Positions 3,001 through 35,518 of a stretch of DNA of 64,000 bases are shown piece after piece. Origin of the DNA: a virus. Taxonomy: Duplodnaviria > Heunggongvirae > Uroviricota > Caudoviricetes. Within the stretch, counting starts at the first letter, position 1. Every line of letters begins with the position of its first letter. Both the position numbers and the translations under genes were made by a program. The DNA lies in the IMG/VR virus record IMGVR_UViG_3300044712_000123. One strand, written 5' to 3'. The notes under the pieces are model-generated. The model saw only the letters and a list, made by a program, of their open reading frames with translations, was not told the DNA's origin and ran no database searches.

Positions 3001-6000
3001 CTGCAATAGTCAATGTATCTGTAGTCAAGTTACTATCAGTAACTAATGTTGAAGTAACGCCTGTATATGTCTGGGCTAATGTGATTCCTGAAACAGGTAT
3101 CGTTAACAAGTTATTTTCATAAACTTCAACTTGGTTGTTAGAAATAACCTTGAGATAGTACTGATTCACTGGGCCTGCTGGAGTACCAGCACGAATAACG
3201 TTAGTGATTACTCCATTACTATCAATAGAGTTGACAGTCATAGTTAAATCGTTAACTCCAGTAACACCACCTAAATACTCACCCAAGATAACAATTGTAT
3301 TATCGACTGCGTATCCTGAACCACCGTCAACAATGATTACAGAGTAACCACCAATCATGTAACTAACATCGAATACTGTAGTTGTATCTGTAGGGGTTTG
3401 TGTCATTGTCACTGGACCCAACTCATAAGATACTGAAACGTCTGCACCACTTGGTGTAGCAGAAACAGTAATGTACGGTGAACCTTCAGCAATCATACTA
3501 CCTGATGTTGTAGTAACAGTTACAGGAGTTAGACTAGATGGGGTGTACGCAACTGTGAATTGCGTAGAACTATTAATAGAGTGTACATAATACTCGTTGT
3601 CTAATTCCAAAGTACCTAACGAGATACCAGAAAATACGATTGGCATGCCAACGTATATTCCACTAGTATCTGCGCATACTAAATAATTTCCAACACTAGT
3701 AGTTCCTGTAATCTCAAGTTGAATACCAGGAACAGATTCAGTAGAACTAATAACACGTCCGGTATATTCAGTTACATAATATGTTGTAGCTGCACTCAAA
3801 CCACCAATAGCAGTATCAAACACTACCGGCATATTTAAATAGAAACCAGAAGTACCGCCGCTTTCACTATCTATAGCAATTACATTTGTTGTTGCATCAA
3901 TAGTGCGTGTTAGATAGTTACCACTAGTACCAGTAACTCCAACATACTCGCCGGATGTACCGTAGAATGTCATTTGTTGACCATTGACTTGTCCAGGTGA
4001 TACTGGTAAACTGACGTTCAATGTCATCTCACCTGTAGCAGTTGTCAAGTTAACAGTGTCTCGTTGACTTGTTGCTAACATTTCATTTGAAGAAGCAAAA
4101 GTACAAGTACCTGGATTAAAAACACCACCGTTTAGATATGCTGATATCTTGATTGTGTTACCAGACAAGATGCTTTGAACATAATATCTAGTTCCGGCAA
4201 CAATGTTGGTAGAACCGGTTGCAGGATTAATATTACTAAAAATCACAGGATCGTTTACTGCCAATGATACAGTTGTATTGCAAGTAACAATACCAGAACT
4301 ATCAGTTTCGCTCACTGTAAACTTAGTTGGTTGTTCAATCTTGGATATAGTGAAGTTTTGTAAATCAATTACGGATGTTACATAGTAATGCTCATTCTCG
4401 ACAATTCCACCAAAGACATTGCCTGTAAAATACACAGACAAGCCTGTATAGAATCCACGAGTACCACCTGTACCACTAGTGTTTAACGGAATAGTTACCG
4501 CATTATTTCCTTGGGTTGTTGCGGTTGCCGTAGTAATTCCTGGGTAATCAATTGTCACTACAGCAACGTTATTCAACTCACCGGTGTAGCAAATTAATCC
4601 AGCGGCACCGATAGTCGATGTTGTTAGTGTTTGAACTGCTCCAGGAACACCATTTGAAATGGTAGCTGAGACCGTAAATGAAGTCTTGCTATTAACTGTC
4701 TTAACGTAGTAAGTTTGACCGCCAACTAGGCCGCCGCTTACTGCCCCAATGAACTTTACCGGCATACCAACATAGAAACCTAATGTAGTGTCTAGTAGAT
4801 TAATATCTGCAACTGACAATGACTGCCAGTTAGTAGGATATACTTTAATTTCATTAGTACCAGTCACGTTAGTATTAATAACTGAACGTTCTTGAGAAGA
4901 CCAAGATAAAGTTTCGCTATTGCTGATATTTTGAATTTCGAATACTGCTCCCATTGCACTTGCTAAGATATTGTCAACCGGAGGAGCTGAACTTTCTAAC
5001 GATATGCTTGAGCTAGAAATTCGACTGCTATTATCATAGTTACCTGCGTAGAAAGAGCTATAGTACTCACCGCTTAGCCAATCACTAACCTGACTTTGGT
5101 AGCTAGTTCTATCAAATTTCATTTTGATTTGATTTTCTCTGATAGGTGCTGCGCTTGAGATGCATGACGCAAACGCACCTAAGTTCAACGTTTGGTTTGC
5201 ACCTGTTCCTGTTGTGAACAGTGTAATTCTTTGGCGATCCAACAGAGCGTTTGCGTAATTAGAATACAATGCGATAATAACAGCAGGGTTAGTTTCAAGG
5301 ACATTAATATAGTATCGTTGTCCGTTTTCCAATCCACCTACTGCAGTGGTATCTGCACCAACCGCGTATGTTACTAAATCACCAGTCTGTAGCGTAGGAG
5401 CAAACAATTCAATTGTATTTGATGTTGTGCTTACTTTACTGCTATCGAATGTAACCGTAGTAGCTGGATCAATAATAATCTTTGGTAATACTGCATATCC
5501 TTGACCAGGATCCTCTACTGTAACACTCAACACACTGTCTAAATTCATTACAGCCTTAAGCACAGCAGGGCGAGTTGGTTCAGGGTAAATTGAAGTATCA
5601 ATATAAGCAGTAACCTTAGGAGGTTCTGTGTATGCTCGGCCACCGTTTAGCAATAACACTGCAGGTAGATTGATGGTAATTTCTTCTCCAGGAAGATGTT
5701 GTACAATAGCTGTACCGTTAAGACCACGAGTTAATCCACTAAGAACGTTTAACGATCTATCAACATTAGCATAGCCAATTTGTTCTTCACCGATTGTAAT
5801 TATGCCGTTAATAGGGAAACCATATGCGTTGTCTACTGCCATTGCAGTTGAGTTCAACGCTACATATGATGCTAAAGTTGTTATGCTATAGTTATCAACA
5901 CCAGTGATACTGACACCATAGTTTTGATACCATTGATTGTACTCGCTTGTCTGCCAGATTGGATCTGACGGCAAGTATTGATTATCTGCGCTAGGGTTTG

Positions 6001-9000
6001 TATACACTAACTCAGGTGTGATGAATTTTTCATAAGTAGAGTTGTACTTTGCAGGCAAGTCAAAATCAGTAATGTCACCCTCATATACATCGGTTCCGGT
6101 GTATTTGTACAAGAACTCTTTAATAACCACATGATATGGCTTGACTTCGTTTAAATAACCTGACAAGAAATCTTGATTGTCTGATTGGAATACTTCGATT
6201 GGTTTTAACTCACGAATAGTGTGGGCAACATCAACGAATGATGTCTTGTTCAACCAAGGTAGATAGTTCTGTGATTCAATAGTTTCTGACTGAATGTATT
6301 CAAACAATAGAATCAACGCTTTATTTCTAAACAAGTCTAAGTTGTTAGGTAATTCTTCGTTGATTGCTCTAACGATATAACGAGTTTCTTCACTTGGGTA
6401 AGTGTCGTATGGGGTGGTATCGAAGAAATTATCGCCGAAACCAAAACGTGCTGTTTGATAATCCCACAATGAACTCTTAAACTGAATAGTACCATTAGTT
6501 AAACCAATTCTATTCCATTCACCTGTTGACAACAAGATATAAGTCTCTGCGAAGCCATCACCGTTTGCTAAAACTGTTGCAATAGTTCCTGTAGGAACAT
6601 TTAGTGCAGCTAAGTCTGCATAGATAGAAACCTGCACTGCTGACTTGGTATTGTCATTGTATCCAGGCGCCCACCAGTTAACTACATCCCAATATGCGTT
6701 TACATCAAAGAACGGTAGAGGTGAACCTAACCAATTTGGGTTGTTAACTGTAGATGGATTAATTTCACCTACCTTGTAAACAAAGGTTGAATTGTATGAC
6801 TCAATGAATGGATATTGAAGAATAACTTCATTTGCATATTGCAAATAGTTTTTCAACGCAGTTAAACGATTCACGAAGAAGCTCTGTCGTGGTCTTGTCA
6901 ACACTCCATACTGTACTGGTTTAGGTAAGTATGGATCAGGAATAACTGAGCCTGCAATGTTTGTGCCAGATAAACTATCTAGTAACTTGGCGTACAATGA
7001 TTCAGGCTCAGTGTTTGCTGAGTTTGAAGCAGGCAAGCCTGGCAAGAAATCATCTGCATAATTTGCACGAATCAAACTGTACAAACTATGAGGTACATCT
7101 TGTGAAGATCCGTTACCATATCCAATGTGAAGAACAGTGTCAGTGTAATTGACATATTCACCTGAATTGTACAATCCAAAAACGTTTGGTAGTAATGGAG
7201 CAAAATAACTAATACCAGATGAGATCGGATTAGAAATATACTGTTCGATGATACTATCCGCTAAAGTTTTTCCTGTCTTAGTGAAGATAATGTTAGTATT
7301 ACGTACCCAGAAGAAGTACACCGGAGACAAGCCACCAGTTGAGTTAGTTATATATTCAGTTGTGTATGAAGTAATGTCATATGGAGTTCCTGGACCTTGG
7401 TATGCTGATGGAACTACATTACTACTAATCCAACTGTAAACTGCTACGTCACTACCAGGGAACAATGTACCCCAGTACTTACTGTTATAGACTACATCAT
7501 TTTGATGGTAGTTAATGAAACGTGATCTGCTAGTATCAAACCATATTTCACCAACTTTTTCTGCTCCCCAGATAGAATCTGATGGTAGAGTTCCTGTAGT
7601 ATTATATGATGCAGGATCAATGTTAGAGACAACATCAATGTTTTCTCTGACGACACCTAGCAACTTACCCTGTAGAGGGTCCATGTAGTCTAGATTAACT
7701 AGTGTTGAATTAGTTGATGCACTGTACAACTGTACGTTTTGAATTTTAGACGTATCAACTACTGCCGATGAGCTTCGATACACTGACCAATCCTGTACGC
7801 CAGATGGATTTGAGTAAAATATTACTTGTCCTTTAGTAGTACCAGAAACAAAGTTAGGAGTACCAATCATTACGAATGAGTTGTTGAAGTCGATGGCGTG
7901 CCCGTACATTGGTTGAGCACCGTTAACATCAGTGTTAGCATTTGTACTCTGTGCATAAACAAACTTACCTGGGTTTAGTAAACTCTCATTGTAGTTGGCT
8001 AGGTAATCAAACATGTAGACTGCACCAACGTTTGCAATAGTATCAACCCATTGGGTTGCATTGTTGTCAAATACAGTATCATTGTCAGATTCATCATCCG
8101 AGAAATCAAACGTAGTACCAGAATAGCGTGTTCCGCTAGGAGCTGAAGCAACGAAAGATTCAGATTCGTTGAAACGAACGTTGTATCCAAATTGAGTTGC
8201 ACCGTCTGCATGTGGGCATTCTACTGTCTGTGTCAATGTTAGGATGTTGATTCCCAATTCTGCTGGGGTAGCAGAATCTAAAACAGTGATACTTAGTTTG
8301 TCATTTGGTGTAGCTAAGTTAATGTCGATTAGTTGAATAATCAACTTACCTGCAATGGCTGCTGCTTGTACGTTTGTGATACGTGCTGAATTGATTGCAG
8401 CAGCCGCAACACTTGCATTCCCTGTAGGAATACTAACAGCGTATCCGTTTAATAGAATCGTGCGAGTAGTAGTTACGTTACAGTCAGAAGTACCAATAAT
8501 TACACCGTACTTGTTACCGCCATTTGTAAATCGATATACGGCACCTTCATGGTTGCTGCTAGATAATTCAAACGGCGCGCCAATAATGACTTCACTTGTG
8601 TATGTAGTAGAATCCATGCTCGTACCAAACTGCACACCGATTCTAGGGGCTGATGGTGAAGTCAACACTTGTGACTTAACAAAGTTGTTACCACTAACGT
8701 TAATAATGTCACCTGCGTTTAATCCAGAATAAACAGTTAAAGTACTACCAATCGCTGCATAAGCAGAATCATCTAGCAATGTGCCATTGACGCTAACATA
8801 TAGTGGACTTGTCTGTGCATTTACAGTCATTGTACCTGAGCTATTTGTTAGGTTTAAAGTTGATCCATTGCGTGTCAATGACAACGTAATAGTTGAACCA
8901 ACAACAGTCTTGACATAATATACTCTGTTTAATGATACGCCACCAAATACTGTACCAGTGAAAGTAATTGCAGTTCCGTTGGCGCCGCCAACTAAATTAG

Positions 9001-12000
9001 TAACATTATTCAATGTTATTGCATTACTTGTAATGCTTGATGCAGTCTTAGATGCAGTGTTCGATGGCGTCCATGACAACCCAAATGATTGCGGTGTGTA
9101 GATTTGACTAGTATATTGTGCTTCAAAGTTTTGCACTGTTCTTTCGAACATATATGCATAACCCCAGTTAGAGATAGTGCTATAATCTTGTTGTGGTGCG
9201 CCAACAACTACAGTATCACCGAAGTAATCTGTAGTAATAGATGCACCGAAGTTGTCACCCGAAGTTAAGCCAGATACAGTGAGGCTAGTTGAAAGCTCAT
9301 ATAAACCTGTAATAGATGACTTGCGGTATACATAAACTTTATTCAAATCAGCCGCAGATATATACAACCAATTCTTGTCACCGGAAATAGATAAGGCAGT
9401 TCCCCATTTAGTAGAACTATCTTCTGCTGGTATTTCTTGAATTAGATTCAATCTGTCAACTAAAGTAGTTTGCTCTAGTTCGTAAACATACACCTTAGGT
9501 GTTCCGCTTGTTGGTTCACTAATAATGAATGAATTATCGCTATATGCGATAGTTGTACCGAACGAAGCACCTTTAGTTAGGGTTTGATACAACTCATATT
9601 CTTTCATCAATGGATTATATGAATAGCGATATACTGCACCTGCCCCGGCATCACCGATTAATCCACCAACTTTATTAGTGTATGCAACTGAACTACCAAA
9701 TGAAACTGAACCATCTTTAGTAGTATTGTAATCGAAACCGTAATTTAAACTCTTGCGATAAACAGCCCATGAACCATCGTTGTTGGTATCGACCCAGACT
9801 TTGTTCTTAATGAATTCGCTGTCTAACAGTGGTAAGGTGCTGATATCCGAAGGAGTATTGACACGTTGAGATTGGAATTTAAATCCAACACCATAGCCGG
9901 TTATTGTTGAAACTTGAGGGTTCAAGTTCAATGTGATAATCACTTTATATGGATCTACTACACTTGATACAATATAGTAATTGTCAACACGTGCATCAAA
10001 ATTCACAATAGCGAATGCTTGATATTGAGATAGATTGTGAGCAGAAGCAAAAGTTACTGTTACTGTGCCGTTTAGATTATTTTTTGCATATACAACTTGT
10101 CCCAATGATGTTGGAGTGAATGTTTGCCATGTGCCTAAATAATCAGCTAGCCATACGTAATCTCTCACATATAACTCTGATAGTGGTACAACGTTGTTGC
10201 TGTTGTCTTTAGCTGTAGGTAAGTTTGCATAATAATATGCAGACATCTTTACGTCATTTAGATTGACATAGCCTGCATCTGGAAACAATACGTTAGGTGT
10301 TGCAGGTGGAAGAGTGGCCAGCACCTCAGGGTTCTTGATCTGTCTACCATAATTGTAAACTGAGTACAAAGGAACTTCTTGCTGAACTCCGGGGATATCA
10401 TAGTTACCATTGGTCAACCCAACAGTCGAAGGATTACCTGTCAACTGTGTCTCGTTCAATTTGATATCAACAAAATTGTTATTTAGGATGCCACCAAACT
10501 CACCTGACAAGATAGCCCAATTTTCATAGATATCATAGTCGATACCACCTTGAACCAAGTTTGCTCCCTTGAACGCCTTAGCAGCAGTCAAAGTTCCTTT
10601 TTCTCTAATCATGTTCTTATAGACGTTGACCTGTGTAATGTCTGTCAGGTCTGCAAGAGCCATGTAATCACGAGGTCGATATCCAATTAAACTAAAACTC
10701 AATTGGTCAGCATCGTTCTCTAGGTTTGCTTTGTTTACATCATAGTATATGGTAGATTCATAAGAACGTGTTGAGCTATTAGGCAACAATCCTTTTTGAA
10801 TTTCATTGTAATTAGTTTCTTTCCACTCACGCTCATCAAACAATTGTTTTGCTTGGATAATCGTAGTAGCAGTCCAATATTTGTTTTTATATTTGACAAT
10901 CGCACCTTGAGTGTATTTTGTTTCAGTAGACCACTCAACAATGTTATCTTGGTTCAAGATGAAGCCTTGAGCATCAACTGTACCGTTCCACTCAGCCGAT
11001 TTGGCACCTCTTACTGTAATACGAATCTGGCGAAGACCAGTGACTAGATTATAGATAGTGTCGTTGAATAATGTTACGTTATCAAAAACAATACCATGTT
11101 CAAAATTACTGACGTTGAATTGTCCGTAAGCAACAGTATCACCTTCACTTAATGGAACAACAGTGAATGCAGTGCCTTCACGAACGACTGAAAGATTCTC
11201 TGATGGAATAGGATACAAGTTTTGATTCAAGACAAAATTTTGCTGTCTCATTGTCAATGGTTGCACAATGTAGCTGTCTTTGTTGATTGACAACTCGGTC
11301 GCTGCAGGGTTGATGTTCGCAATCGATCCAACTTCCCATCCAATCTGAACCCAGTATAGAAATTCAGCGATCATTTGACTCCATGTTACTGGAATACCAT
11401 TTTCTACCTGTGCAAAAACACAACCTTGTTGTTCTAGATATTTACCGTACCCATCTAAGAATTGCGACACATCAGTGATAGAGAAAAACTCTGTTCCATA
11501 TGGAACTAACGCAATTTTATCAGTGTAGTCTTTTGGAATACTAACTGTTTCTTTGTCAATCGTAATAACATCAGTATTACCATTTACTTTTGGAATCAAT
11601 GTTTTGAAATATGCTTCAGTTTGACTGTTTCCATATACAGCATAACCATTCTTAGTGACCTGAATAATTACTCCGCTGTAAATGATTCTGTCGAACGGTT
11701 GGTTGTCATATAACAAAACACCGTAGCTTTCATCAGGAATCAACAAAGAGCTATTGTTACTGTTTGCTGATGATTTTTCAACATAGAACTTTAGAAGGTT
11801 CTTATCACTGAAGCCAGCGACACGGTAGACCAAACGAACATCAATGTTTGTTAGCAAATCTGCGATATTAGTTGTTGCGTCAACGCCAACTTGTTTTTCA
11901 TAATCAACAATCCAGTTGATATAGCTGGTCTTTGCAGTACCACTACCGTATATTTGAACATCACTTAAAACTAAGTGGCTACGATTGTTAACCAAGTATT

Positions 12001-15000
12001 GGTTAAATTCAGTATTATACTTGTAGTTGTCAACGTCAATTGCCAAGTTGAAAAACTCAGCTGGCTTAGTCAAAGCAAGTATACGCATCAAGTCGAACGG
12101 ATATGAACTGCTTCTACGATATGAGAATTCAGTTGGACCAACATCTCCCACTTTCCAGTCAGACTGGAACAAGTAGTCGTTGTAATTACCAACAATTGAT
12201 GATAGAGGAGGTACTAAGTTACCTTCAGTGTCAACTGGAAGAATGTCTAACAGTTGAGGACGGATTGCTTGTTCGATTACAATTGGATCACCGTTGTTCC
12301 AATTGATACCTTGCGCCAAATCTTCCCATAGAACCAAGTTATCACTTGTGTATGGTGCTGCACCGTAACGGGCAGTCCACCAAGACGGTTGATTTTTGAA
12401 GCCTAACATTTCCCATGGTGATGTGTTGGGAGTACTTGTATCATAGAAATACAAGTACATTCCTCTCCAGTAACCTTGGTCTATAGGTGCCTTGTCAATT
12501 TTATTTCCACTATTTCGATAGTTGAATGTGTACTCGTTAGTTCTTTGGTAGTACTGTGTTTTGTAGTCAACACGATTTTGACCTACCCAATTCAAGAATG
12601 AACTAGAATAAATTTCTAATATTTCATTGTAGGTATAATCAGTATCACGGAAGAAGCCTGGTAGAACCTCATACTCTTGTACGGGAATTACGTTGCTTAA
12701 CTTCAAGTTGTTGTATACACGTGTTTCGTACTCCAACAAGACCTGATCTCTAAAATCAACCAATGAATTAGTTGTAGTATTGTACTGTCCAAACAACTTA
12801 TTATATGATCCATCGTGTCCTACTATAAAATATGTAGGTTGTTGATAGTTGATATCTTGAATAACCTGTGGGATAGATGCAGGATACAATCCTAACTTAG
12901 TCGGTGTGTTAGGTACATACGAACCGTATGTTTGATTATATTCTTTAATCGTAATCAAGTCGCCGGGTAACAAGTCAGTAGAGACTGTCAATGAAGGACT
13001 GTCAGTACTAACTACATAATCAGTATTTCTGATTAACTGAGTAACTTTGTTGTTGCGTGTAAGATAAACTAGCACACCGTAATAATTAGCGGTAGTATAG
13101 TCATAAATTCTACTCAACGGATAGATAGATACATCCAATGAGTTGGCAAAACTATATGAATTTGAAATGTATGCAGATTTAGATGGCAACATATCAGACC
13201 AGAAGAATGGCTGGTCATCTGAATGTGCTGCTGTGATTTGATCCATAGCATCATCTAGCATCTCTGCAGGAGACATATACACTGAGTAGTCGGTACTGTT
13301 TACTGTATCTACTAACAATGTTTTGAAATTGATGTATTGTTTACTGTTATACATCAAAGAGTTGAACAGATTGTGATCCTGCTTGCGCAAGAATGCACCT
13401 GGTGCAACTAAAGAAGCACTGTTTTGAATAATTCTATTTCCGTAAGGAACTAAATTACCTAAATCTCTGAAGTTGTTTGATCCAAACACTGTTCCTACAG
13501 TGTCTGGGTTATTAAAGAACATGCTTTGATATTGTCCACGAATATCACCTACGTTAACTGTAGTTACTTCCTGATTCAATGGGTTATTGTTCAAGTTGAT
13601 AGGAATCTGGTAGTATGCATTTGAACTAGTTTGATCGCTCAACAATAGAATTTGAATAACAGTATCAACTGCTGGTGCGGTATTCAAAGTAACAGTAGTC
13701 GAAGTACTTTCAGCAACATATGTAAACTCAGAAGATGTTTGATAATCATTATTGACAAAAACTTGAATTCTTGGCCACTTAGTATACTCAGCAGAGACTA
13801 AAGGAATATCACAAGTAAACGTAGCGTCGGTGGTCCCAACGTTGTAATTGAATTCAAAAATTTGATATTGTACACTAGGTGATACTGCTGTTTGCCAACC
13901 TAGTTGACGAACAAAACTGTCTCGTGCAGTATAGTTATAAACATAACCAATGTTAACATTCTCTGTTATTGGAGTTGTTCCTGATACGTAGTTGAAAAGG
14001 TCTGAGTTTAAGGTGACATCGAAGCTAATGTCTCCTACGTTGTCAACGCTTGAATATCTGATGGGGAATCCTAAAATTGGATCGTCAATTCCTGTTCCAA
14101 TACCATATCCAAACAATGTTGAGCCTACAAAAGAAGTACCAACATAATAGGCCTTGTCACCTAAACTAATACCATTAGAATCAAAGATATCAAACAAAGG
14201 TGGCTGATTGACTGTAGTTTTTTGTTGAGTCAATTGCCAATTTGTATCATTGAATCGGAAGTCTTTACCTTGATTGTTGTATCCTCTAAAGGCAACTGTT
14301 TGGTCGTCATTTAAGATAAAACCATCTGCGGCTTCAGTCAATGTTATGATAGGAGTTCCGCCGTCGATTGATGAGAAACCACTTACATAAATTTTGTTTC
14401 TAACGTTAGCGTCTTGGTCGGCAGCAAAGATGATTCTAGCACCATTAAACAGCGCATAGTTATCAGTAGTTGTATCAGTTGTGATAATAGATGAGGTTGT
14501 TGTGCCTGAAACATTTTTTGTGCCACTCCAAGATACAGTGATAGTTAATACATCAGTTCCAGTGATAGAAGTGATTGTAGTATTGGTTGGTAACACATTT
14601 GTAGAGTCAGCTACATATTGTCCTACTGCAATAGGTCCGATAACATCACTTGCATTGACAGTAATTGTAGTACTGGTAGCTCCGGTAACGGCTGCAATGA
14701 TACTGTTATAGCCTGTGTACGATGTAACATCGGGATAATAGTTTTCTTGGCCAGCAACTTGAGTGAAGGCGTCCGTAGTTCTAAAATCAACAAAGTCTAC
14801 TGGAGCTTTGCCGATAACACCCGAATCGAATAATCGTAGGTTAGGATAGAACTCAATAATTGGACGCTTAGCCTTATTCTCAGCAGTGGCATACTTAGTT
14901 ACTATTGAAGGGTTTCCGTTGTACTGGGCAGTTGCATTAATAACATCAATGTGGAACCAACGGTTACTACGTGACCATGCATTCATGTCCATTGAATTTC

Positions 15001-16474
15001 TTGCAATGGTGATATAGTCCGGAGTTACTGGAACATACAAGGTGCTATCATAATTTTCAACGTCATAAGGGGTAGTATCATATGGGATATATGATCCAAA
15101 CGTGAATGGTTCTGGTGCGATCAAATCAGACTCACGAACCAATTGGATAGCTGTACCTACTCCCTCAACATAGAAAGGAACGTTTTTGAAACTATCTGGG
15201 TAAATTGCCCCTGAGAATACAACCTTAAGACCGTTTGTGAAGACCACGCCAGTTGAAGAGGTATATTGTTTTCTACCTAAAATTTCAGTTTCAATATTAA
15301 GTGTGTTAGTAGTGTTACTATCAACAATCTTAATGACACCTACTTTGTTTGCAGTGGTACCGTCTTGGTAATATAGCGTGTCTAAAGCTGCACTCAAGAA
15401 AGGAATGATGCTTACTGTTCCGGTAACGTTTCTATAAAAGTTGCGACTAATCCATTCAGTACCGTAACGAGCAGTAATTTTTTCACTAGTAGGAATTCCT
15501 CCACTAGGAACTAATGTTAGTGTAGGATCGATTGAACTTCCGGTATATGTTATTACATAGAAGTTCGAAGTCTCTAACGGGTCAACTGCACCTGTATTAT
15601 AAAACATGACAGTCAATCCCTCTAAAGAAGTGATACCGTCAATGTTGCCCACCTGACTCAACAGTTGACCGTTAATTTGACTATATGGTGTAGTAGAAAC
15701 TACGTCAACTTCGTTATTGCCGGGAAAATTGTATTCATCTTGTGCGTTCTTATTAGGAACAGTAAATGTAACTACTCCACTTGAAGCACCGTTGTTGATT
15801 ACACCTAATACATCACGTGTTTGTAAGTTAGGTTGTGTTGGGCTATATCCAGTAACACCCGGTGCACCTTGAATCCAAAACTGACTTATTTGATTGACTG
15901 TAAATGTGTAAGTACCACCACGCAATAGAGTCAACGTAGGGTTAGTGCTACCTGCTTGGCCATCCACAGCAATATTGTATCCGTTAACTGCATCAGTTAC
16001 TAGATAGCTCGAACCACTAAAAATAGTTTCAGTAGAAATAGTGACACGCTCTGGTCCCTGTGGCAACCAGTAATACTGATTAAAGTTAATGATTTTATCT
16101 AAGTCAGTGAAGGAATCCCATGAATAGAACTGACTGTTGAACAGACGATTATTATCAGTAGTTAAACCACCTTCTACCTTCAATCCGTCAATAATACCAG
16201 GGTAACTAATGAAGTCGTTTGCGGTTGTTTGATTTGCTTTGGTAAAGACGACGCCAGGATCTAATTGATAATCAGTTCTTGTCTTTGTGGGTTCAGTCAC
16301 ATAGTAGTTCTTAGCGTTGATACCATACCCAAATTTACTTCCAACATATCCCTCAATACGTTTCGTGTTCGGTTGAGCGACCACTTGATCCAACGTAGCC
16401 TGTAAAAACTGACTGTTGGTTACTGTTTTGAAAATTTCAGGAAGAAAGTTTAGCGTTCTAATTCTTGTTGCCAT
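1..16474 (-). CDS. Giant virion structural / baseplate-wedge-associated protein, >=5491 aa, 3' end outside the window
   Basis: ATG at 16474 (MATRIRTLNFLPEIFKTVTNSQFLQATLDQVVAQPNTKRIEGYVG...). The same frame still reads as protein at base 2 (...TISAGTNTITFTSAPALNA). The ORF track reports no stop-terminated ORF in this frame, consistent with one ORF running off the edge. Spot translations show FG-GAP-like repeats, Asp-box-like SxxGxxW repeats and repeated G-x-P-I-x-F...GGL...YYV modules. It lies directly downstream of the gp6-like wedge gene. Confidence 0.88.
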   Translation of the reverse strand, partial: MATRIRTLNFLPEIFKTVTNSQFLQATLDQVVAQPNTKRIEGYVGSKFGYGINAKNYYVTEPTKTRTDYQLDPGVVFTKANQTTANDFISYPGIIDGLKVEGGLTTDNNRLFNSQFYSWDSFTDLDKIINFNQYYWLPQGPERVTISTETIFSGSSYLVTDAVNGYNIAVDGQAGSTNPTLTLLRGGTYTFTVNQISQFWIQGAPGVTGYSPTQPNLQTRDVLGVINNGASSGVVTFTVPNKNAQDEYNFPGNNEVDVVSTTPYSQINGQLLSQVGNIDGITSLEGLTVMFYNTGAVDPLETSNFYVITYTGSSIDPTLTLVPSGGIPTSEKITARYGTEWISRNFYRNVTGTVSIIPFLSAALDTLYYQDGTTANKVGVIKIVDSNTTNTLNIETEILGRKQYTSSTGVVFTNGLKVVFSGAIYPDSFKNVPFYVEGVGTAIQLVRESDLIAPEPFTFGSYIPYDTTPYDVENYDSTLYVPVTPDYITIARNSMDMNAWSRSNRWFHIDVINATAQYNGNPSIVTKYATAENKAKRPIIEFYPNLRLFDSGVIGKAPVDFVDFRTTDAFTQVAGQENYYPDVTSYTGYNSIIAAVTGATSTTITVNASDVIGPIAVGQYVADSTNVLPTNTTITSITGTDVLTITVSWSGTKNVSGTTTSSIITTDTTTDNYALFNGARIIFAADQDANVRNKIYVSGFSSIDGGTPIITLTEAADGFILNDDQTVAFRGYNNQGKDFRFNDTNWQLTQQKTTVNQPPLFDIFDSNGISLGDKAYYVGTSFVGSTLFGYGIGTGIDDPILGFPIRYSSVDNVGDISFDVTLNSDLFNYVSGTTPITENVNIGYVYNYTARDSFVRQLGWQTAVSPSVQYQIFEFNYNVGTTDATFTCDIPLVSAEYTKWPRIQVFVNNDYQTSSEFTYVAESTSTTVTLNTAPAVDTVIQILLLSDQTSSNAYYQIPINLNNNPLNQEVTTVNVGDIRGQYQSMFFNNPDTVGTVFGSNNFRDLGNLVPYGNRIIQNSASLVAPGAFLRKQDHNLFNSLMYNSKQYINFKTLLVDTVNSTDYSVYMSPAEMLDDAMDQITAAHSDDQPFFWSDMLPSKSAYISNSYSFANSLDVSIYPLSRIYDYTTANYYGVLVYLTRNNKVTQLIRNTDYVVSTDSPSLTVSTDLLPGDLITIKEYNQTYGSYVPNTPTKLGLYPASIPQVIQDINYQQPTYFIVGHDGSYNKLFGQYNTTTNSLVDFRDQVLLEYETRVYNNLKLSNVIPVQEYEVLPGFFRDTDYTYNEILEIYSSSFLNWVGQNRVDYKTQYYQRTNEYTFNYRNSGNKIDKAPIDQGYWRGMYLYFYDTSTPNTSPWEMLGFKNQPSWWTARYGAAPYTSDNLVLWEDLAQGINWNNGDPIVIEQAIRPQLLDILPVDTEGNLVPPLSSIVGNYNDYLFQSDWKVGDVGPTEFSYRRSSSYPFDLMRILALTKPAEFFNLAIDVDNYKYNTEFNQYLVNNRSHLVLSDVQIYGSGTAKTSYINWIVDYEKQVGVDATTNIADLLTNIDVRLVYRVAGFSDKNLLKFYVEKSSANSNNSSLLIPDESYGVLLYDNQPFDRIIYSGVIIQVTKNGYAVYGNSQTEAYFKTLIPKVNGNTDVITIDKETVSIPKDYTDKIALVPYGTEFFSITDVSQFLDGYGKYLEQQGCVFAQVENGIPVTWSQMIAEFLYWVQIGWEVGSIANINPAATELSINKDSYIVQPLTMRQQNFVLNQNLYPIPSENLSVVREGTAFTVVPLSEGDTVAYGQFNVSNFEHGIVFDNVTLFNDTIYNLVTGLRQIRITVRGAKSAEWNGTVDAQGFILNQDNIVEWSTETKYTQGAIVKYKNKYWTATTIIQAKQLFDEREWKETNYNEIQKGLLPNSSTRSYESTIYYDVNKANLENDADQLSFSLIGYRPRDYMALADLTDITQVNVYKNMIREKGTLTAAKAFKGANLVQGGIDYDIYENWAILSGEFGGILNNNFVDIKLNETQLTGNPSTVGLTNGNYDIPGVQQEVPLYSVYNYGRQIKNPEVLATLPPATPNVLFPDAGYVNLNDVKMSAYYYANLPTAKDNSNNVVPLSELYVRDYVWLADYLGTWQTFTPTSLGQVVYAKNNLNGTVTVTFASAHNLSQYQAFAIVNFDARVDNYYIVSSVVDPYKVIITLNLNPQVSTITGYGVGFKFQSQRVNTPSDISTLPLLDSEFIKNKVWVDTNNDGSWAVYRKSLNYGFDYNTTKDGSVSFGSSVAYTNKVGGLIGDAGAGAVYRYSYNPLMKEYELYQTLTKGASFGTTIAYSDNSFIISEPTSGTPKVYVYELEQTTLVDRLNLIQEIPAEDSSTKWGTALSISGDKNWLYISAADLNKVYVYRKSSITGLYELSTSLTVSGLTSGDNFGASITTDYFGDTVVVGAPQQDYSTISNWGYAYMFERTVQNFEAQYTSQIYTPQSFGLSWTPSNTASKTASSITSNAITLNNVTNLVGGANGTAITFTGTVFGGVSLNRVYYVKTVVGSTITLSLTRNGSTLNLTNSSGTMTVNAQTSPLYVSVNGTLLDDSAYAAIGSTLTVYSGLNAGDIINVSGNNFVKSQVLTSPSAPRIGVQFGTSMDSTTYTSEVIIGAPFELSSSNHEGAVYRFTNGGNKYGVIIGTSDCNVTTTRTILLNGYAVSIPTGNASVAAAAINSARITNVQAAAIAGKLIIQLIDINLATPNDKLSITVLDSATPAELGINILTLTQTVECPHADGATQFGYNVRFNESESFVASAPSGTRYSGTTFDFSDDESDNDTVFDNNATQWVDTIANVGAVYMFDYLANYNESLLNPGKFVYAQSTNANTDVNGAQPMYGHAIDFNNSFVMIGTPNFVSGTTKGQVIFYSNPSGVQDWSVYRSSSAVVDTSKIQNVQLYSASTNSTLVNLDYMDPLQGKLLGVVRENIDVVSNIDPASYNTTGTLPSDSIWGAEKVGEIWFDTSRSRFINYHQNDVVYNSKYWGTLFPGSDVAVYSWISSNVVPSAYQGPGTPYDITSYTTEYITNSTGGLSPVYFFWVRNTNIIFTKTGKTLADSIIEQYISNPISSGISYFAPLLPNVFGLYNSGEYVNYTDTVLHIGYGNGSSQDVPHSLYSLIRANYADDFLPGLPASNSANTEPESLYAKLLDSLSGTNIAGSVIPDPYLPKPVQYGVLTRPRQSFFVNRLTALKNYLQYANEVILQYPFIESYNSTFVYKVGEINPSTVNNPNWLGSPLPFFDVNAYWDVVNWWAPGYNDNTKSAVQVSIYADLAALNVPTGTIATVLANGDGFAETYILLSTGEWNRIGLTNGTIQFKSSLWDYQTARFGFGDNFFDTTPYDTYPSEETRYIVRAINEELPNNLDLFRNKALILLFEYIQSETIESQNYLPWLNKTSFVDVAHTIRELKPIEVFQSDNQDFLSGYLNEVKPYHVVIKEFLYKYTGTDVYEGDITDFDLPAKYNSTYEKFITPELVYTNPSADNQYLPSDPIWQTSEYNQWYQNYGVSITGVDNYSITTLASYVALNSTAMAVDNAYGFPINGIITIGEEQIGYANVDRSLNVLSGLTRGLNGTAIVQHLPGEEITINLPAVLLLNGGRAYTEPPKVTAYIDTSIYPEPTRPAVLKAVMNLDSVLSVTVEDPGQGYAVLPKIIIDPATTVTFDSSKVSTTSNTIELFAPTLQTGDLVTYAVGADTTAVGGLENGQRYYINVLETNPAVIIALYSNYANALLDRQRITLFTTGTGANQTLNLGAFASCISSAAPIRENQIKMKFDRTSYQSQVSDWLSGEYYSSFYAGNYDNSSRISSSSISLESSAPPVDNILASAMGAVFEIQNISNSETLSWSSQERSVINTNVTGTNEIKVYPTNWQSLSVADINLLDTTLGFYVGMPVKFIGAVSGGLVGGQTYYVKTVNSKTSFTVSATISNGVPGAVQTLTTSTIGAAGLICYTGELNNVAVVTIDYPGITTATATTQGNNAVTIPLNTSGTGGTRGFYTGLSVYFTGNVFGGIVENEHYYVTSVIDLQNFTISKIEQPTKFTVSETDSSGIVTCNTTVSLAVNDPVIFSNINPATGSTNIVAGTRYYVQSILSGNTIKISAYLNGGVFNPGTCTFASSNEMLATSQRDTVNLTTATGEMTLNVSLPVSPGQVNGQQMTFYGTSGEYVGVTGTSGNYLTRTIDATTNVIAIDSESGGTSGFYLNMPVVFDTAIGGLSAATTYYVTEYTGRVISSTESVPGIQLEITGTTSVGNYLVCADTSGIYVGMPIVFSGISLGTLELDNEYYVHSINSSTQFTVAYTPSSLTPVTVTTTSGSMIAEGSPYITVSATPSGADVSVSYELGPVTMTQTPTDTTTVFDVSYMIGGYSVIIVDGGSGYAVDNTIVILGEYLGGVTGVNDLTMTVNSIDSNGVITNVIRAGTPAGPVNQYYLKVISNNQVEVYENNLLTIPVSGITLAQTYTGVTSTLVTDSNLTTDTLTIADSTGFALYDPIVFTGTVAGGLTLGQTYYIVGITTTVSPEATIQVATSPTGSAINITANDVTCTVAKQGDYAFLPEPFYFNRSVVKYNNRVYQCLISNNDTDFIFGKWELLDSGSSKLNALDRIVGYYQPTINMPGLDLTQLVEGITYPNSTYLGNAFAPDAQFPIDTILQDQPFYPAEVDIKSVIWDGTTYVAAANAPTYSAVLLSASATLWNIDRIANQPINPTDIITVGIGDDTKYIMTTTNASTPLLLSEDGASWVWISSGAEYTPYDAIPFDDIGFDLSALKTDAVSLNSVAYYNGVAVAVGQNIVASTDFFFWPEVYDLSIAYGNLPQVLNGVTSVSIPNYNGFVAVGAGQRVVGSNTIDTNLIVTSTDGLNWVPQFDVLTSYALNAVTSNTDKIIIVGDNSVRFVSVNGSNWNNISAAGTGNPNLNDVIYAQGKFVVVGDNGTIQSSVNGDVWTTYTSGTTENLNSITYNADLGEFVVVGENNITLSSPDLSTWTISTLFVTEPTVYNVQGDAFTAGYGPEEMVPGVVSDTLTMTVATRPGTDWAATKYAHVGYNVVSTELVVENTVQKIFSWANTVETPSQLAVFGISATTGLSVSLYKNTDYTIDWIAQTITMNSTPYSLGYNKIRVDVYETGNGDQLVKANTSTDPIRDNSSTGFSEIYVNCDYSAPIFSGSGVVRPGSEPIEVIATRTEAGPDSITVTNIGKFILNSPIKFYGGVFGGVQEDVTYYVKTISLVTGKITISDTFNVGTGTAGPTFQLSDATGIMTVIIQVGIGQPWSTPITFYNGNQLTFGSALNITRTNSVRDTVTCNSTNGLVVGSQLVFSNTMFGNIIEPMKKYYLKSIYDGNEFTISETLGGATVQLDDATGGAMVVVNDYAFGVVEDSITAKIIFAGVNDPNNPGYVMPYNQSTDYLTYTLFGETVPEQYGYTLPEVNLFTGTGSQTVFAFTNYVGLTNRTSSIVEINGIRQTSSTYTISAGTNTITFTSAPALNA

Positions 16475-33349: not shown

Positions 33350-33913
33350 ATGACAAGTCCACAGAAAGCAAAAGGCTCAGGTTTCGAGCGAGAAATCGCA
33401 AAATATCTTTCAGATAAGTACGGTGAATCATTCATTCGTGCTCCTGGATCCGGTGCTTATGTGGGTGGGAAGAATCAATCACGTACAGAATTCTTGCACG
33501 AAGGTCAAATTCGTTCTTTCAAGGGCGACATTGTACCCGGTCAAAGTTTCAGTAAAATGAACATTGAATGCAAATTCTATGCTGACTTCCCATTTCATCT
33601 ATTACTTACAGGGGACTGTAAAGTAATCGATACTTGGATCGACCAACTCATGGACGTAGCAGATCCTGGCGATATTAATCTTCTGTTTATGAAGTTTAAT
33701 CGCAAGGGTCGCTATGTTTGCGTACAAAGCAAATTTACATGGTTGGCTGACAACTTTGTGTATTACACATCAAAAAAGCACGGTGACTGGACAATCTTCG
33801 AGTTCGACAGTTTCTTTGCATCAAACACTGAATTACTTAAAACATATTCAACATCAATAGACACCACGTCAAAACAATCATCTGATAACCCCATTTTAAC
33901 AATTAACATCTAA
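33350..33913 (+). CDS. Holliday-junction resolvase-like PD-(D/E)xK nuclease
   Basis: KAKGSGFEREIAKYL...RAPGSGA...GDIV...IECKFY is an Hjc-type nuclease pattern; follows gp46. Confidence 0.75.
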   Translation: MTSPQKAKGSGFEREIAKYLSDKYGESFIRAPGSGAYVGGKNQSRTEFLHEGQIRSFKGDIVPGQSFSKMNIECKFYADFPFHLLLTGDCKVIDTWIDQLMDVADPGDINLLFMKFNRKGRYVCVQSKFTWLADNFVYYTSKKHGDWTIFEFDSFFASNTELLKTYSTSIDTTSKQSSDNPILTINI

Positions 33914-33930
33914 AGTTTGAAAAATTCGTT

Positions 33931-34290
33931 GGCTCCGTTGGGAGTCCTCCTTGAGACTGTACAGATCGTGCTGTGCCGTTAGATTCTGGAGTATATATGT
34001 TAGCAATAACATAGGAATACCGAGAGGGCAATCGGCAAAGCGAACCCTCAACAAGCTCACACTTATTTCATTTTTGCGGTGTGAGATGTGCGTTGCGAAG
34101 GCGTCAATTGAAATAGCATTGATAGACCTAACTACAGCCTCATTATACTTTACAGAGCAACCGGTAGCGGATCATGTCACAAAGACGGCAATGATTCGGA
34201 GGAAAAATGACTATGGATGACGGGCATGGCAAATGTACCCTTAACCAAAGGTAGTGCTGAACAGCACTACCATGGCTTCAAAGCGGCAAT
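33931..34290 (+). ncRNA. Candidate large structured non-coding RNA (family not recognised)
   Basis: About 9 local stems: 33931-33946, 33959-33976, 33996-34013 (GCAA loop), 34024-34049, 34056-34085, 34104-34122, 34168-34198, 34222-34240 and 34250-34271. G-U pairs favour the plus strand. Long-range complements are 33952-33961/34133-34142 and CCTCC 33946-33950/GGAGG 34198-34202. GC is ~44% by hand count over 33961-34260, higher than the other spacers. Confidence 0.7.
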
Positions 34291-34350
34291 ACGTATTCTT
34301 CTCCTTTAATAGTAAAAGAGAATAGTTAGAATAAATTAACCGTAAAAATA

Positions 34351-34392
34351 AAGAACGAACGAAGTGAGTTCTTAGATGAACGAAGTTCATCT
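34351..34392 (+). other. Twin hairpins with C-GAA-G triloops
   Basis: AAGAAC-GA-AC-GAA-GT-GA-GTTCTT (34351-34373, tandem GA/GA mismatch) directly followed by AGATGAAC-GAA-GTTCATCT (34374-34392), in AT-rich flanks. Confidence 0.7.
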
Positions 34393-34441
34393 TTAAAAGA
34401 GATACTAGAATAGATAACTCTAAACCTCTTATGACAAATGA

Positions 34442-34464
34442 ATAGGTACATCCAGTGTACCTAT
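34442..34464. terminator. Inverted repeat between convergent units, possible terminator or processing hairpin
   Basis: ATAGGTACA-tccag-TGTACCTAT, 9-bp perfect stem just past the stop at 34470; no clear U-tract. Confidence 0.4.
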
Positions 34465-34469
34465 ATCCA

Positions 34470-34706
34470 TTAGAAGAATGGCAATTGAGATTTCTTAGTA
34501 ATGTCTAGGTTCTCCTCAACAATACTTGCTATGGCTTCTCGCTCTTGGGGAGACATATTGAGTATGTCTTCATAGGAAGCTCCCCCTCGCATGTACCAAG
34601 AAAATTTCAGTGCGTTCTTTTTGATAGTATTGGCTTCTTCATCCATACTATCAATTAGCTTCTGTATCTGCTCAGGGGCTAGAGTGAGAAGCCTTAATCG
34701 AAAAAA
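34470..34706 (-). CDS. Unannotated small tail/baseplate-assembly ORF (gp51/gpT-like), probably reached by -1 frameshift; own ATG at 34646 gives 58 aa
   Basis: The -1 frame is open from the slippery site: FFRLRLLTLAPEQIQKLIDSMDEEANTIKKNALKFSWYMRGGASYEDILNMSPQEREAIASIVEENLDITKKSQLPFF*. The W-Y...S-Y-E-D-I-L-N-M-S-P-x-E-R pattern resembles gpT/gp51 chaperone tails. Confidence 0.75.
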   Translation of the reverse strand, partial: FFRLRLLTLAPEQIQKLIDSMDEEANTIKKNALKFSWYMRGGASYEDILNMSPQEREAIASIVEENLDITKKSQLPFF

Positions 34707-35518
34707 TCTGAAACGTTCAATGCAAGTGACTGCTCATAGTCATGACTACAATTAACACACTTGATTTTCATTGGTTTGATATTTGCACCTTCACGTAGTT
34801 TAATAACTTGGTCTCGAATCGCCGAGAATGTGTTTCTATCACAACCATGTAAAAATTCCGAAATGTACTCTTTGTTGTCTACGATTGTATTTGGTAGTTT
34901 GATACTTTCGATGGTATTAACTACAATCTCGATGTTCATCTCTGTCAACTTTTTCATTGTAGCAGCCGACTGCTTTGCTCTAGCATCATCATCTTCTATT
35001 AGCTGGATGTTATTGATTTCTCGTTTAATCTCAAATTGTGCTAGGTTACCATTGTTTACATCACGATATGAAAGTGGTCTGAACTTTATTTCTAAATCTC
35101 GGATTTTCATGACATTCTCGTAACCCTCTGCTTTGATATCACTCAACAGACTAACTAAGTTTACACCGTACTTACCAGATTCTTCACATTTTGGGCAGAA
35201 TGAATCGATTTCTAGATCATTGCCGTTTGTAGCTGCTCTGATGGCAATTAACAACGTGTCTACGTCAACTGACGGCAACACCCAAGGATCTTTGATTGAT
35301 GGAACACAGCTTTTGATAATTTCAATTACTGCATTACCGTTAAACAACGCATCAGGGGTCTTCGCTGTAATTTCATCAATGGCCGTCATTGGGTATACTG
35401 GTAACTCACCGTTATCCGGCATTTCAAGAGTACCCTCAGGGTAATACTTGCCTTTGCTAGGAAGTGTGATATACAATGCTGGTCTACGGAAATATTGTCT
35501 TAGTGGGTTATTGCTCAT
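34694..35518 (-). CDS. Baseplate hub / tail assembly chaperone (T4 gp26-like)
   Basis: NPLRQYFRRP..YITLPSKG, PMTAIDEI, DVDTLLIAIRAAT, two CxxC pairs (CPKC, CVNC), ends SDFFD; adjacent to the tape measure gene. Confidence 0.75.
   Translation of the reverse strand: MSNNPLRQYFRRPALYITLPSKGKYYPEGTLEMPDNGELPVYPMTAIDEITAKTPDALFNGNAVIEIIKSCVPSIKDPWVLPSVDVDTLLIAIRAATNGNDLEIDSFCPKCEESGKYGVNLVSLLSDIKAEGYENVMKIRDLEIKFRPLSYRDVNNGNLAQFEIKREINNIQLIEDDDARAKQSAATMKKLTEMNIEIVVNTIESIKLPNTIVDNKEYISEFLHGCDRNTFSAIRDQVIKLREGANIKPMKIKCVNCSHDYEQSLALNVSDFFD

Follow-up and report, generated by a model that had tools for sequence, protein, structure and literature searches.

A conserved triple-pseudoknot fold, probably of RNA, with covarying direct repeats in large T4-like phages: a candidate RNA-guided replication origin

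In this work, we ask what is contained in the 556-nt gap that follows the end, at position 33913, of a resolvase gene in a stretch of viral DNA of 64,000 nucleotides (IMG/VR record IMGVR_UViG_3300044712_000123, here called the window), and what it may do there. An earlier note, made from the letters of the window, had proposed a large, elaborately folded non-coding RNA, possibly a primer for an R-loop origin. The window derives from a large T4-like phage, with genes for a late sigma factor, gp47 (SbcD-like), gp46 (SbcC-like) and a RusA-like resolvase, the last gene of the gp55-gp47-gp46 cluster; after the gap come, on the minus strand, a 58-aa ORF and a gp26-like baseplate hub gene, and portal, protease and capsid genes lie beyond the latter. 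Judging from the comparison of related sequences, the gap between the resolvase and hub genes contains a real, conserved non-coding fold with three pseudoknots, likely an RNA.

Copies were recruited from resolvase-bearing loci and by RNA-motif searches, which yielded 211 distinct full-length sequences of 344-427 nt (median 363), 59-91% identical to the window. The span initially proposed, 33931..34290, thus corresponds to a real element, but is too short, the conserved extent being 33923-34290. A profile of the RNA matched 119 of 119 and 119 of 119 viral candidates and 116 of 120 metagenomic ones, the other four being chance pattern matches; none of 101 pattern matches in prokaryote genomes was genuine. 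Localization is practically constant: the resolvase lies directly 5' of the RNA in 282 of the 283 loci with enough flanking sequence (202 of 203 in the motif-recruited subset), and the hub genes 3' of it in 300 of 301 (225 of 226), all these counts being partly redundant. The small ORF is also found in 75 of 80 resolvase-bearing loci, with gaps of 489-609 nt in 69 and of 1050-1104 nt in 6; in all six long gaps an extra ORF is inserted 3' of an intact RNA element. An intron or homing role was discarded, inserted GIY-YIG and other ORFs falling 3' of the element. GIY-YIG-like genes are seen beside it, never within, in L038, L073, L074, L076 and L080 (3' side) and in L544 (5' side). Related long records, of 259-525 kb, contain a single copy each (5 of 5).

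Folding energy of the single sequence is marginal, with z -1.93 on the plus strand (5 of 100 shuffles as good) and -2.07 on the minus strand (2 of 100); being barely above chance and giving no orientation, it was set aside as proof of either structure or strand. Covariation was evaluated in the 85 of 96 copies falling below 90% identity, by a model of 85 pairs (Table 1). The proportion of paired cells is 93.5%; shuffles give 78.0%, none of the 500 attaining the observed value, and sliding of the model gives 31-43%; the shuffle test is not independent, since the pair model was derived from covariation in an overlapping sequence set. Within the 85 sequences, 68 of the 85 pairs changed on both sides, and on a tree single pairs feature repeated paired changes, such as 13 of 14-15 in PK1. 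The comparison of syntenic regions of relatives, which the earlier note had indicated as a check, hence supports the fold.

Table 1. Features of the resolvase-hub gap and its surroundings (window coordinates)
Feature	Position	Strand	Evidence or remarks
RusA-like / PD-(D/E)XK Holliday junction resolvase	33350..33913	+	phrog_244 E 1.2e-21; PF24608 E 3.6e-26
Mini-palindrome, 11 nt, 3-bp arms, 5-nt A/C-rich centre	33860..33870	.	164/172 copies
Structured RNA	33923..34290	+	conservation and one relative's RNA contig; ends inferred
5' domain	33931..34013	+	covariation model helices
P0	33931-46	+	62-87% paired
P1	33947-50/33988-91	+	100% paired
P2	33955-80	+	compensatory changes
P3, GNRA loop	33996-34013	+	compensatory changes
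Knotted core	34019..34210	+	covariation model
Pseudoknot PK3	34019-22/34162-65	+	100% paired; 2/4 pairs compensatory, in one sequence only (L517)
P4	34024-49	+	100% paired
P5	34052-88	+	99% paired
Pseudoknot PK1	34068-72/34206-10	+	98.8% paired; 5/5 pairs compensatory
Pseudoknot PK2	34092-97/34156-61	+	95.3% paired; 3/6 pairs compensatory
P6	34099-129	+	covariation model
P7	34138-41/34199-202	+	98% paired
P7a	34148-49/34166-67	+	covariation model
P8	34168-98	+	compensatory changes
DR1, first repeat copy, predicted guide	34222..34232	+	2-nt bulge relative to DR2; in weak, variable hairpin
P10, terminal hairpin between repeats	34250..34271	+	99.8% paired; 3/7 pairs never vary
DR2, second copy, conserved 3' end of the RNA; template strand is predicted target	34281..34289	+	identity covariation
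Variable AT-rich spacer	34291..34350	.	median 42 nt, range 9-81, 77% AT (203 copies)
Two abutting hairpins, tandem G-A mismatches, GAA triloops	34351..34392	+	DNA mini-hairpin signature; stems covary
Convergent 58-aa ORF and gp26-like baseplate hub gene	34470..35518	-	phrog_150, PF12322

All the stems previously listed for this region were found at their places. Compensatory changes sustain GGCTCC/GGAGTC (P0, partly misaligned), GTACA/TGTGC (P2), TATGTTA/TAACATA (P3), GAGGG/CCCTC (P4), CTCACAC/GTGTGAG (P5), CGGATCAT/ATGATTCG (P8) and the nearly invariant GGTAGTGC/GCACTACC (P10). TCAAT/ATTGA is weak or variable, being 56% paired at its columns, and GGGCAT/ATGtaCCC holds in its GGG/CCC part (82%) but not in CAT/ATG (48%), and is absent from some lineages. 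The two long-range pairings that had been proposed, TGAGACTGTA/TACAGCCTCA (65% paired, one position in 5 of 85) and CCTCC/GGAGG (82%, first position in 30 of 84), are rejected as unsupported; they are weaker than P1 and P7, which use their bases. The idea of an uncatalogued, multi-domain and pseudoknotted RNA is therefore upheld by covariation, though through long-range pairs other than those named: PK1, PK2 and PK3, none of them in the original list of stems, interlock the core. Covariation links position 34166 to 34149 and also to 34018, which suggests a base triple (34018/34149/34166) as the probable arrangement. The core is strongly invariant, in many of its bases and junctions, and several loops of the element have what we take to be a resemblance to T-loops. 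One invariant junction, ACTAC (34131-34135), might alternatively form pairs with 34251-34255, the 5' arm of P10, taking the place of the 3' arm (34266-34270): a possible folding switch, which L194 breaks. An extra hairpin of about 20 nt is present between P1 and P3 in L144, L152, L385 and L396.

In the pair columns, G-T cells number 335 and A-C cells 116, and stems capped by GNRA loops are found on the plus strand in 87 of 211 copies and on the minus strand in 2. The G-T excess and the strand bias of the GNRA caps indicate that the plus strand folds, most likely as RNA, in agreement with the orientation originally assigned. The element is not coding: the distance between anchors is spread over all three frames (74/70/65), and an 89-aa ORF (33951-34220), which has no Pfam match and no frame conservation, was discarded.

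Searches against Rfam, at the gathering threshold and at E 10, gave nothing meaningful in the window; no model matched, including GOLLD, ROOL, OLE, HEARO and raiA, and none of the catalytic motifs of known ribozymes was seen. ARAGORN did not match the element to tRNA or tmRNA, and no tRNA lies nearby. With the flanking genes intact, these results agree with the earlier note, in which the sequence could not be matched to tRNA, tmRNA, RNase P or group I/II intron cores. Distant from the RNA, one genome (G001; L214, L215, L221) has a single cluster of about 45 tRNA genes, as well as a permuted tmRNA and a CUA-anticodon tRNA. In cultured phages there was no DNA match either for the RNA element or for two sequences of the sister family described below, and the RNA profile did not match SCTP-2, PA5oct or Phosso. 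In the literature searched, mostly open-access, no account of the RNA or of its repeat rule was found; the RNA is not among the entries of the four tables searched in PMC10690425, whose alignment archives may contain it.

Ten metatranscriptome runs labelled as RNA contain part of the region, and four of them were compared. In one (X2, record 10), a 398-nt contig of a relative, at depth 84, starts at 33923, proceeds through 34289 and ends 31 nt later; other X2 contigs, at depth 2-14, may come from other strains. Transcript ends, strand and level cannot be read from contigs; in the examination of metatranscriptome coverage that had been proposed, this one contig, matching the extent of the RNA, gives a hint of a discrete RNA. 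The double hairpin downstream is covered by no contig in X1, X2 and X6 and by one in X4; holes in such coverage prove nothing.

The most specific clue to function comes from two short direct repeats, DR1 (34224-32) and DR2 (34283-89), which flank P10 and covary by identity, not by complementarity, with a z of 21.5 that matches true pairs. In a tree of 141 copies, computed from their 5' 290 nt, 19 of 21-22 changes at 34224/34283 fall on the same branch (1.6 expected), 18 of them to the identical base; 34228/34285 features eight same-branch changes, seven identical, and the other repeat positions fewer events (0-5). On the same tree true pairs share 4-23 branches, while linked unpaired positions share 1-7, 0-4 of them identical: same-base changes in the repeats, 18 of about 21, are thus as frequent as partner changes in true pairs. 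Block recombination was rejected as the cause, positions between or beside the repeats sharing only 1-7 branches, but it may still make G-to-T events seem more numerous. With a bulge of at most 2 nt permitted, DR1 equals its own DR2 exactly in 111 of 145 haplotypes, and in 52 of the 81 non-consensus ones, against 87 matches in 3335 comparisons with other alleles.

No third site complementary to the repeats was found within the locus; together with the identity covariation, this makes the template DNA strand the simplest common partner. When only rG-dT and rU-dG wobbles are admitted, DR1 matches the DR2 template over 9 nt in 117 of 145 haplotypes and the reverse holds in 1 of 145, an asymmetry driven by two nearly fixed positions and therefore suggestive only; for 7-mers the direction is not separated (127 vs 117 of 145). 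Pairing of the RNA with its own DNA, irrespective of the consequences, appears to us probable.

Direct repeats are also a classic sign of template switching, and the locus is where two operons meet, that of the early nucleases and that of the convergent late genes. RNA polymerase, or a short primer made on one copy, might accordingly slip from one repeat to the other, ending or restarting transcription; the invariant alternative pairing of the ACTAC junction would fit such a reading. We regard this as improbable: matches tolerating bulges and wobbles suit pairing better than copying, a knotted fold of 370 nt far exceeds the needs of a terminator, tandem copies of the repeat unit number 0 in viral contigs, and the PF00078 reverse transcriptase is absent from all five long records (the control was positive in 3 of 14). 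By the last two observations, a template RNA for a retron- or DRT-type reverse transcriptase was likewise discarded.

Downstream of DR2 lies the AT-rich spacer, which we infer to be a candidate unwinding or hybrid zone, followed by the double hairpin. Of 202 copies, 152 have stems with GNA triloops on the RNA strand and 4 on the opposite one; the corresponding counts are 185 vs 0 for the tandem GA motif and 24 vs 0 for the ssiA-type heptamer CCGAAGG; within the RNA body, GNA triloop stems are rare (3 of 211). Mini-hairpins of this kind, according to the available part of PMC13037366, are far more stable as DNA than as RNA and mark priming sites of phages and plasmids, such as those of G4, St-1, alpha3 and RSF1010 ssiA. 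Energy models did not separate DNA from RNA for the present hairpins. Since these obey DNA rules, the whole element might be thought to fold as single-stranded DNA; this is very improbable, in view of the GNRA loops and G-U excess of the body, where GNA triloops are nearly absent, and of the contig spanning the element in an RNA library.

With the hub protein as query, phages were reached at 36% identity which have neither an adjacent resolvase nor the window-type RNA. In the same slot these sister phages carry another RNA, behind a GIY-YIG-type gene (family assigned by reading its motif), and the 5' part of this RNA corresponds to Rfam Polynucleobacter-1 (RF01718) in 13 of the 17 loci scanned, at 83-123 bits. 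Polynucleobacter-1 was catalogued in 2010, with no function given in the portion of the report at hand; the alignment presented there covers this core with one pseudoknot and ends before the repeats (Weinberg et al. 2010, PMC2864571). Of 140 loci examined, 51 reached ≥40 bits, and from these came 32 different sequences containing both anchors, which were selected by eye. Each of the 32 has the same 7 nt on either side of its terminal hairpin; eight alleles, unrelated to those of the window, are represented. A spacer and GA/GNA hairpins follow the repeats, with a weaker strand bias for the GNA loops (23 vs 11 of 35) and a GA motif found 11 vs 0 times.

Carriers of full-length Polynucleobacter-1 occupy, in the sister clade, the same slot from gp46 operon to hub gene, and have, as judged by inspection, the same order as the window RNA in P4, P5 with its loop pseudoknot, PK2 and a TAC(A/C)G-N3-AACCG loop, as well as the repeat-hairpin-repeat, spacer and GA/GNA hairpins of the 3' side. 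By inspection, order and PK1/PK2 are common to the two cores, and the 3' core, with the P5 loop pseudoknot and a GGUACCGG...ACCGCC hairpin, has the same topology and motif. In contrast, the window RNA is without the 141-nt RF01718 domain and has P7/P8 and PK3 in addition, and the letters of repeats and terminal hairpin differ. The RF01718 model (141 nt, gathering 37 bits) did not match the window or 10 related loci; nor did it match the five long records, where the positive control was also silent. CM and HMM cross-searches of one core against the other gave no significant match (best on-site E 0.28), so that common ancestry, given the shared order, is likely rather than demonstrated. Four sister loci lacking the RF01718 domain, out of 27 sequences, contain the P1/P2 module of the window RNA (blastn E 1e-5 to 2e-8), while the other 23 do not (best control E 0.078); these four (L640, L647, L656, L662), joining sister core and repeats to the P1/P2 module, look like hybrid RNAs and suggest an exchange of modules. 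The three features by which we delimit a putative superfamily, namely the same slot, the repeat-hairpin-repeat arrangement and a 3' end with GA/GNA hairpins, are found in both. The claim of novelty is accordingly to be narrowed: the window RNA matches no Rfam model, but is likely to be an uncatalogued relative of an orphan motif known since 2010.

A fold of defined strand and fixed place, present once in each genome, repeats (DR1 and DR2) that covary by identity in both RNA families, a spacer rich in AT and DNA-type hairpins specific to one strand: these findings led us to a tentative proposal, held at a little short of evens, by which a transcript acting in the manner of ColE1 RNA II would anchor on its own template strand as an R-loop and open a replication origin. 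As RNA polymerase passes DR2, folding of P10 would place DR1 beside the bubble, where its 7-9 nt would capture the template strand at DR2, holding the transcript as an R-loop; RNA made over the AT-rich spacer would remain hybridised, and the displaced plus strand would fold the GNA hairpins, which lie on the very strand such an R-loop displaces, as a loading signal for helicase or primase. The RNA end, cut or as made, would then prime the phage family-B polymerase, encoded in 5 of 5 long records. The knotted core would position DR1 or bind a protein, and could possibly add catalytic help. The suggestion of a primer RNA for an R-loop origin, still a conjecture, thus gains indirect support from the repeats and the mini-hairpins; its supposed link with the adjacent resolvase is weakened, since in the sister family this 3' arrangement comes after a gene of GIY-YIG type. 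The wider generalization, that a broad group of jumbo T4-like phages starts replication at a dedicated RNA-guided origin, with a programmable guide, and that Polynucleobacter-1 is the other branch of one modular superfamily, is offered with somewhat greater reserve.

Comparison with known origins is instructive. In ColE1, as far as the accessible parts of PMC4412123 go, the persistent hybrid forms between an rG stretch of the RNA and a run of dC in the template, and the displaced strand exposes helicase and primase sites. The window RNA would resemble RNA II (PMC4412123, PMC6380287, both available in part) in being a large folded transcript with an internal stretch matching a downstream site of its own DNA, a correspondence seen here as covariation only, and is predicted to expose loading signals on the displaced strand. 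Unlike RNA II, it has a guide of mixed sequence instead of a G run and is rich in pseudoknots, and neither an antisense RNA I nor an RNase HI gene was found; Rfam revealed no homology to RNA II or RNA I, and none to plasmids was seen. T4 origins, again from the available sections of PMC4412123, consist of a promoter and an unwinding element. oriF and oriG share with the present locus a T4-like phage, transcription into an AT-rich stretch and a family-B polymerase; a large conserved RNA fold or guide repeat is not described for them in the portions of the sources at hand.

Several observations weigh against the origin proposal. A bulged hybrid of 7-9 bp is weak without a protein, the wobble direction is not separated for 7-mers, and a primer has no obvious need of so many invariant core bases. 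In favour of the proposal, the distance of the element from the genome-wide divergence point of gene orientation is 5.3-5.4 kb in 3 of 3 long records, but these genomes are syntenic, so that its position counts once. Bidirectional skew is reported for about 30% of huge phages in the part of PMC7162821 available; in the long records, skew at fourfold sites follows the coding strand and hence gives no independent signal of a replication origin. A PF00075 RNase H is absent from all five.

The same repeats could direct cutting instead of priming: DR1 would guide a nuclease (the resolvase, or the GIY-YIG protein of the sister phages), or the RNA's own core, to DR2. The repeats covary in both families, a nuclease gene lies directly 5' of the RNA in both, and the core is strongly invariant; moreover, IS110 bridge RNAs offer a precedent, their loops pairing, according to the part of PMC11208160 at our disposal, with the bottom strand of their own element, in one case through nine RNA and seven DNA bases. 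There too an RNA segment covaries by identity with its own DNA, and is read as pairing with the bottom strand. However, the upstream nuclease is not the same in the two families, and in cultured relatives it is inverted or absent; no catalytic motif of known ribozymes was found, and the element shows no mobility and is single copy. Unlike the IS110 case, there is no DEDD recombinase, the neighbours are resolvase and hub genes, and a top-strand guide, as in IS110-type bipartite loops, was not found at the locus, which has one guide segment only. We therefore consider guided cutting rather unlikely, and equally so its extension, by which the cut at DR2 would start rolling-circle or recombination-dependent replication or packaging.

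The depth-84 contig is as compatible with an RNA that is released and accumulates as it is with the primer of an origin. A trans-acting scaffold comparable to GOLLD and ROOL, large, pseudoknotted, phage-borne RNAs of orphan function (PMC12286853, in its available part), would account for the three pseudoknots, the GNRA loops, the invariant junctions, the stand-alone 398-nt contig and the conserved self-complementary 6-mers at 34160-65 and 34270-75; the repeats would then be twin protein sites or oligomer contacts, and the hairpins a separate terminator or tail. Yet the repeats switch allele often among close relatives, too fast for a co-evolving protein specificity, and tolerate a bulge, and a trans-acting gene need not retain spacer and DNA-type hairpins in two families. 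Different from GOLLD and ROOL, moreover, the window RNA is smaller, matches no Rfam model, lies away from tRNA genes and has the repeat module and the DNA-type hairpins. On balance a scaffold of this kind seems unlikely to us.

The RNA-guided origin, if real, would matter on several accounts. The start of replication in jumbo phages is largely unmapped, and large orphan RNAs seldom come with a testable mechanism, while in the present case evolution itself points to DR1 and DR2 as the bases that interact. It would be the equivalent, in a virus, of the ColE1 primer, though much more elaborately folded, a natural module for RNA-guided opening of DNA, and the first function for Polynucleobacter-1. 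Even should the origin reading fail, an uncatalogued triple-pseudoknot RNA of 370 nt, at a fixed place in hundreds of phage records, is a good target for structural work.

A few further observations concern the surroundings. A scan for promoters stayed near chance (5 vs 2.9), and no conserved promoter was established. A late-promoter-like GATAAATG motif at 34433-34445 (plus strand), 3' of the double hairpin and retained in many relatives, is directed into the end of the minus-strand small ORF; at its position in sister phages TATAAATA drives an inserted plus-strand gene (L608). The 58-aa ORF (34470-34697, minus strand) comes after the hub gene, at whose end a TTTTTTC run is found. Far from the RNA, positions 2-16474 (minus strand) form one open frame of at least 5491 codons, continuing off the window.

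The same slot in Pseudomonas phage PA5oct is taken up by some 1.5 kb (L201:3480-4990) in which all annotated ORFs are tiny; neither RNA profile matches there, and the four published PA5oct ncRNAs are located elsewhere. Sinorhizobium phage Phosso and a relative (L202:3990-5000, L596) have a conserved non-coding gap of 1 kb in the same hub-resolvase slot, adjoining an RNase HI gene and containing GA/GNA hairpins; in these two sequences, one matched change was seen at two short repeats flanking a hairpin, and the GNA loops seemingly lie on the strand opposite to the likely RNA.

Finally, the mini-palindrome upstream of the RNA falls within the variable tail of the resolvase gene, 50-110 nt 5' of the P1 anchor, in G-poor, A/C-rich surroundings. 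Found in 0 of 169 control stretches and essentially once per genome, it is doubled in 23 copies, and its arms covary with compensating changes; in L544 it is retained as two non-coding copies. It may represent a protein-binding or promoter element.
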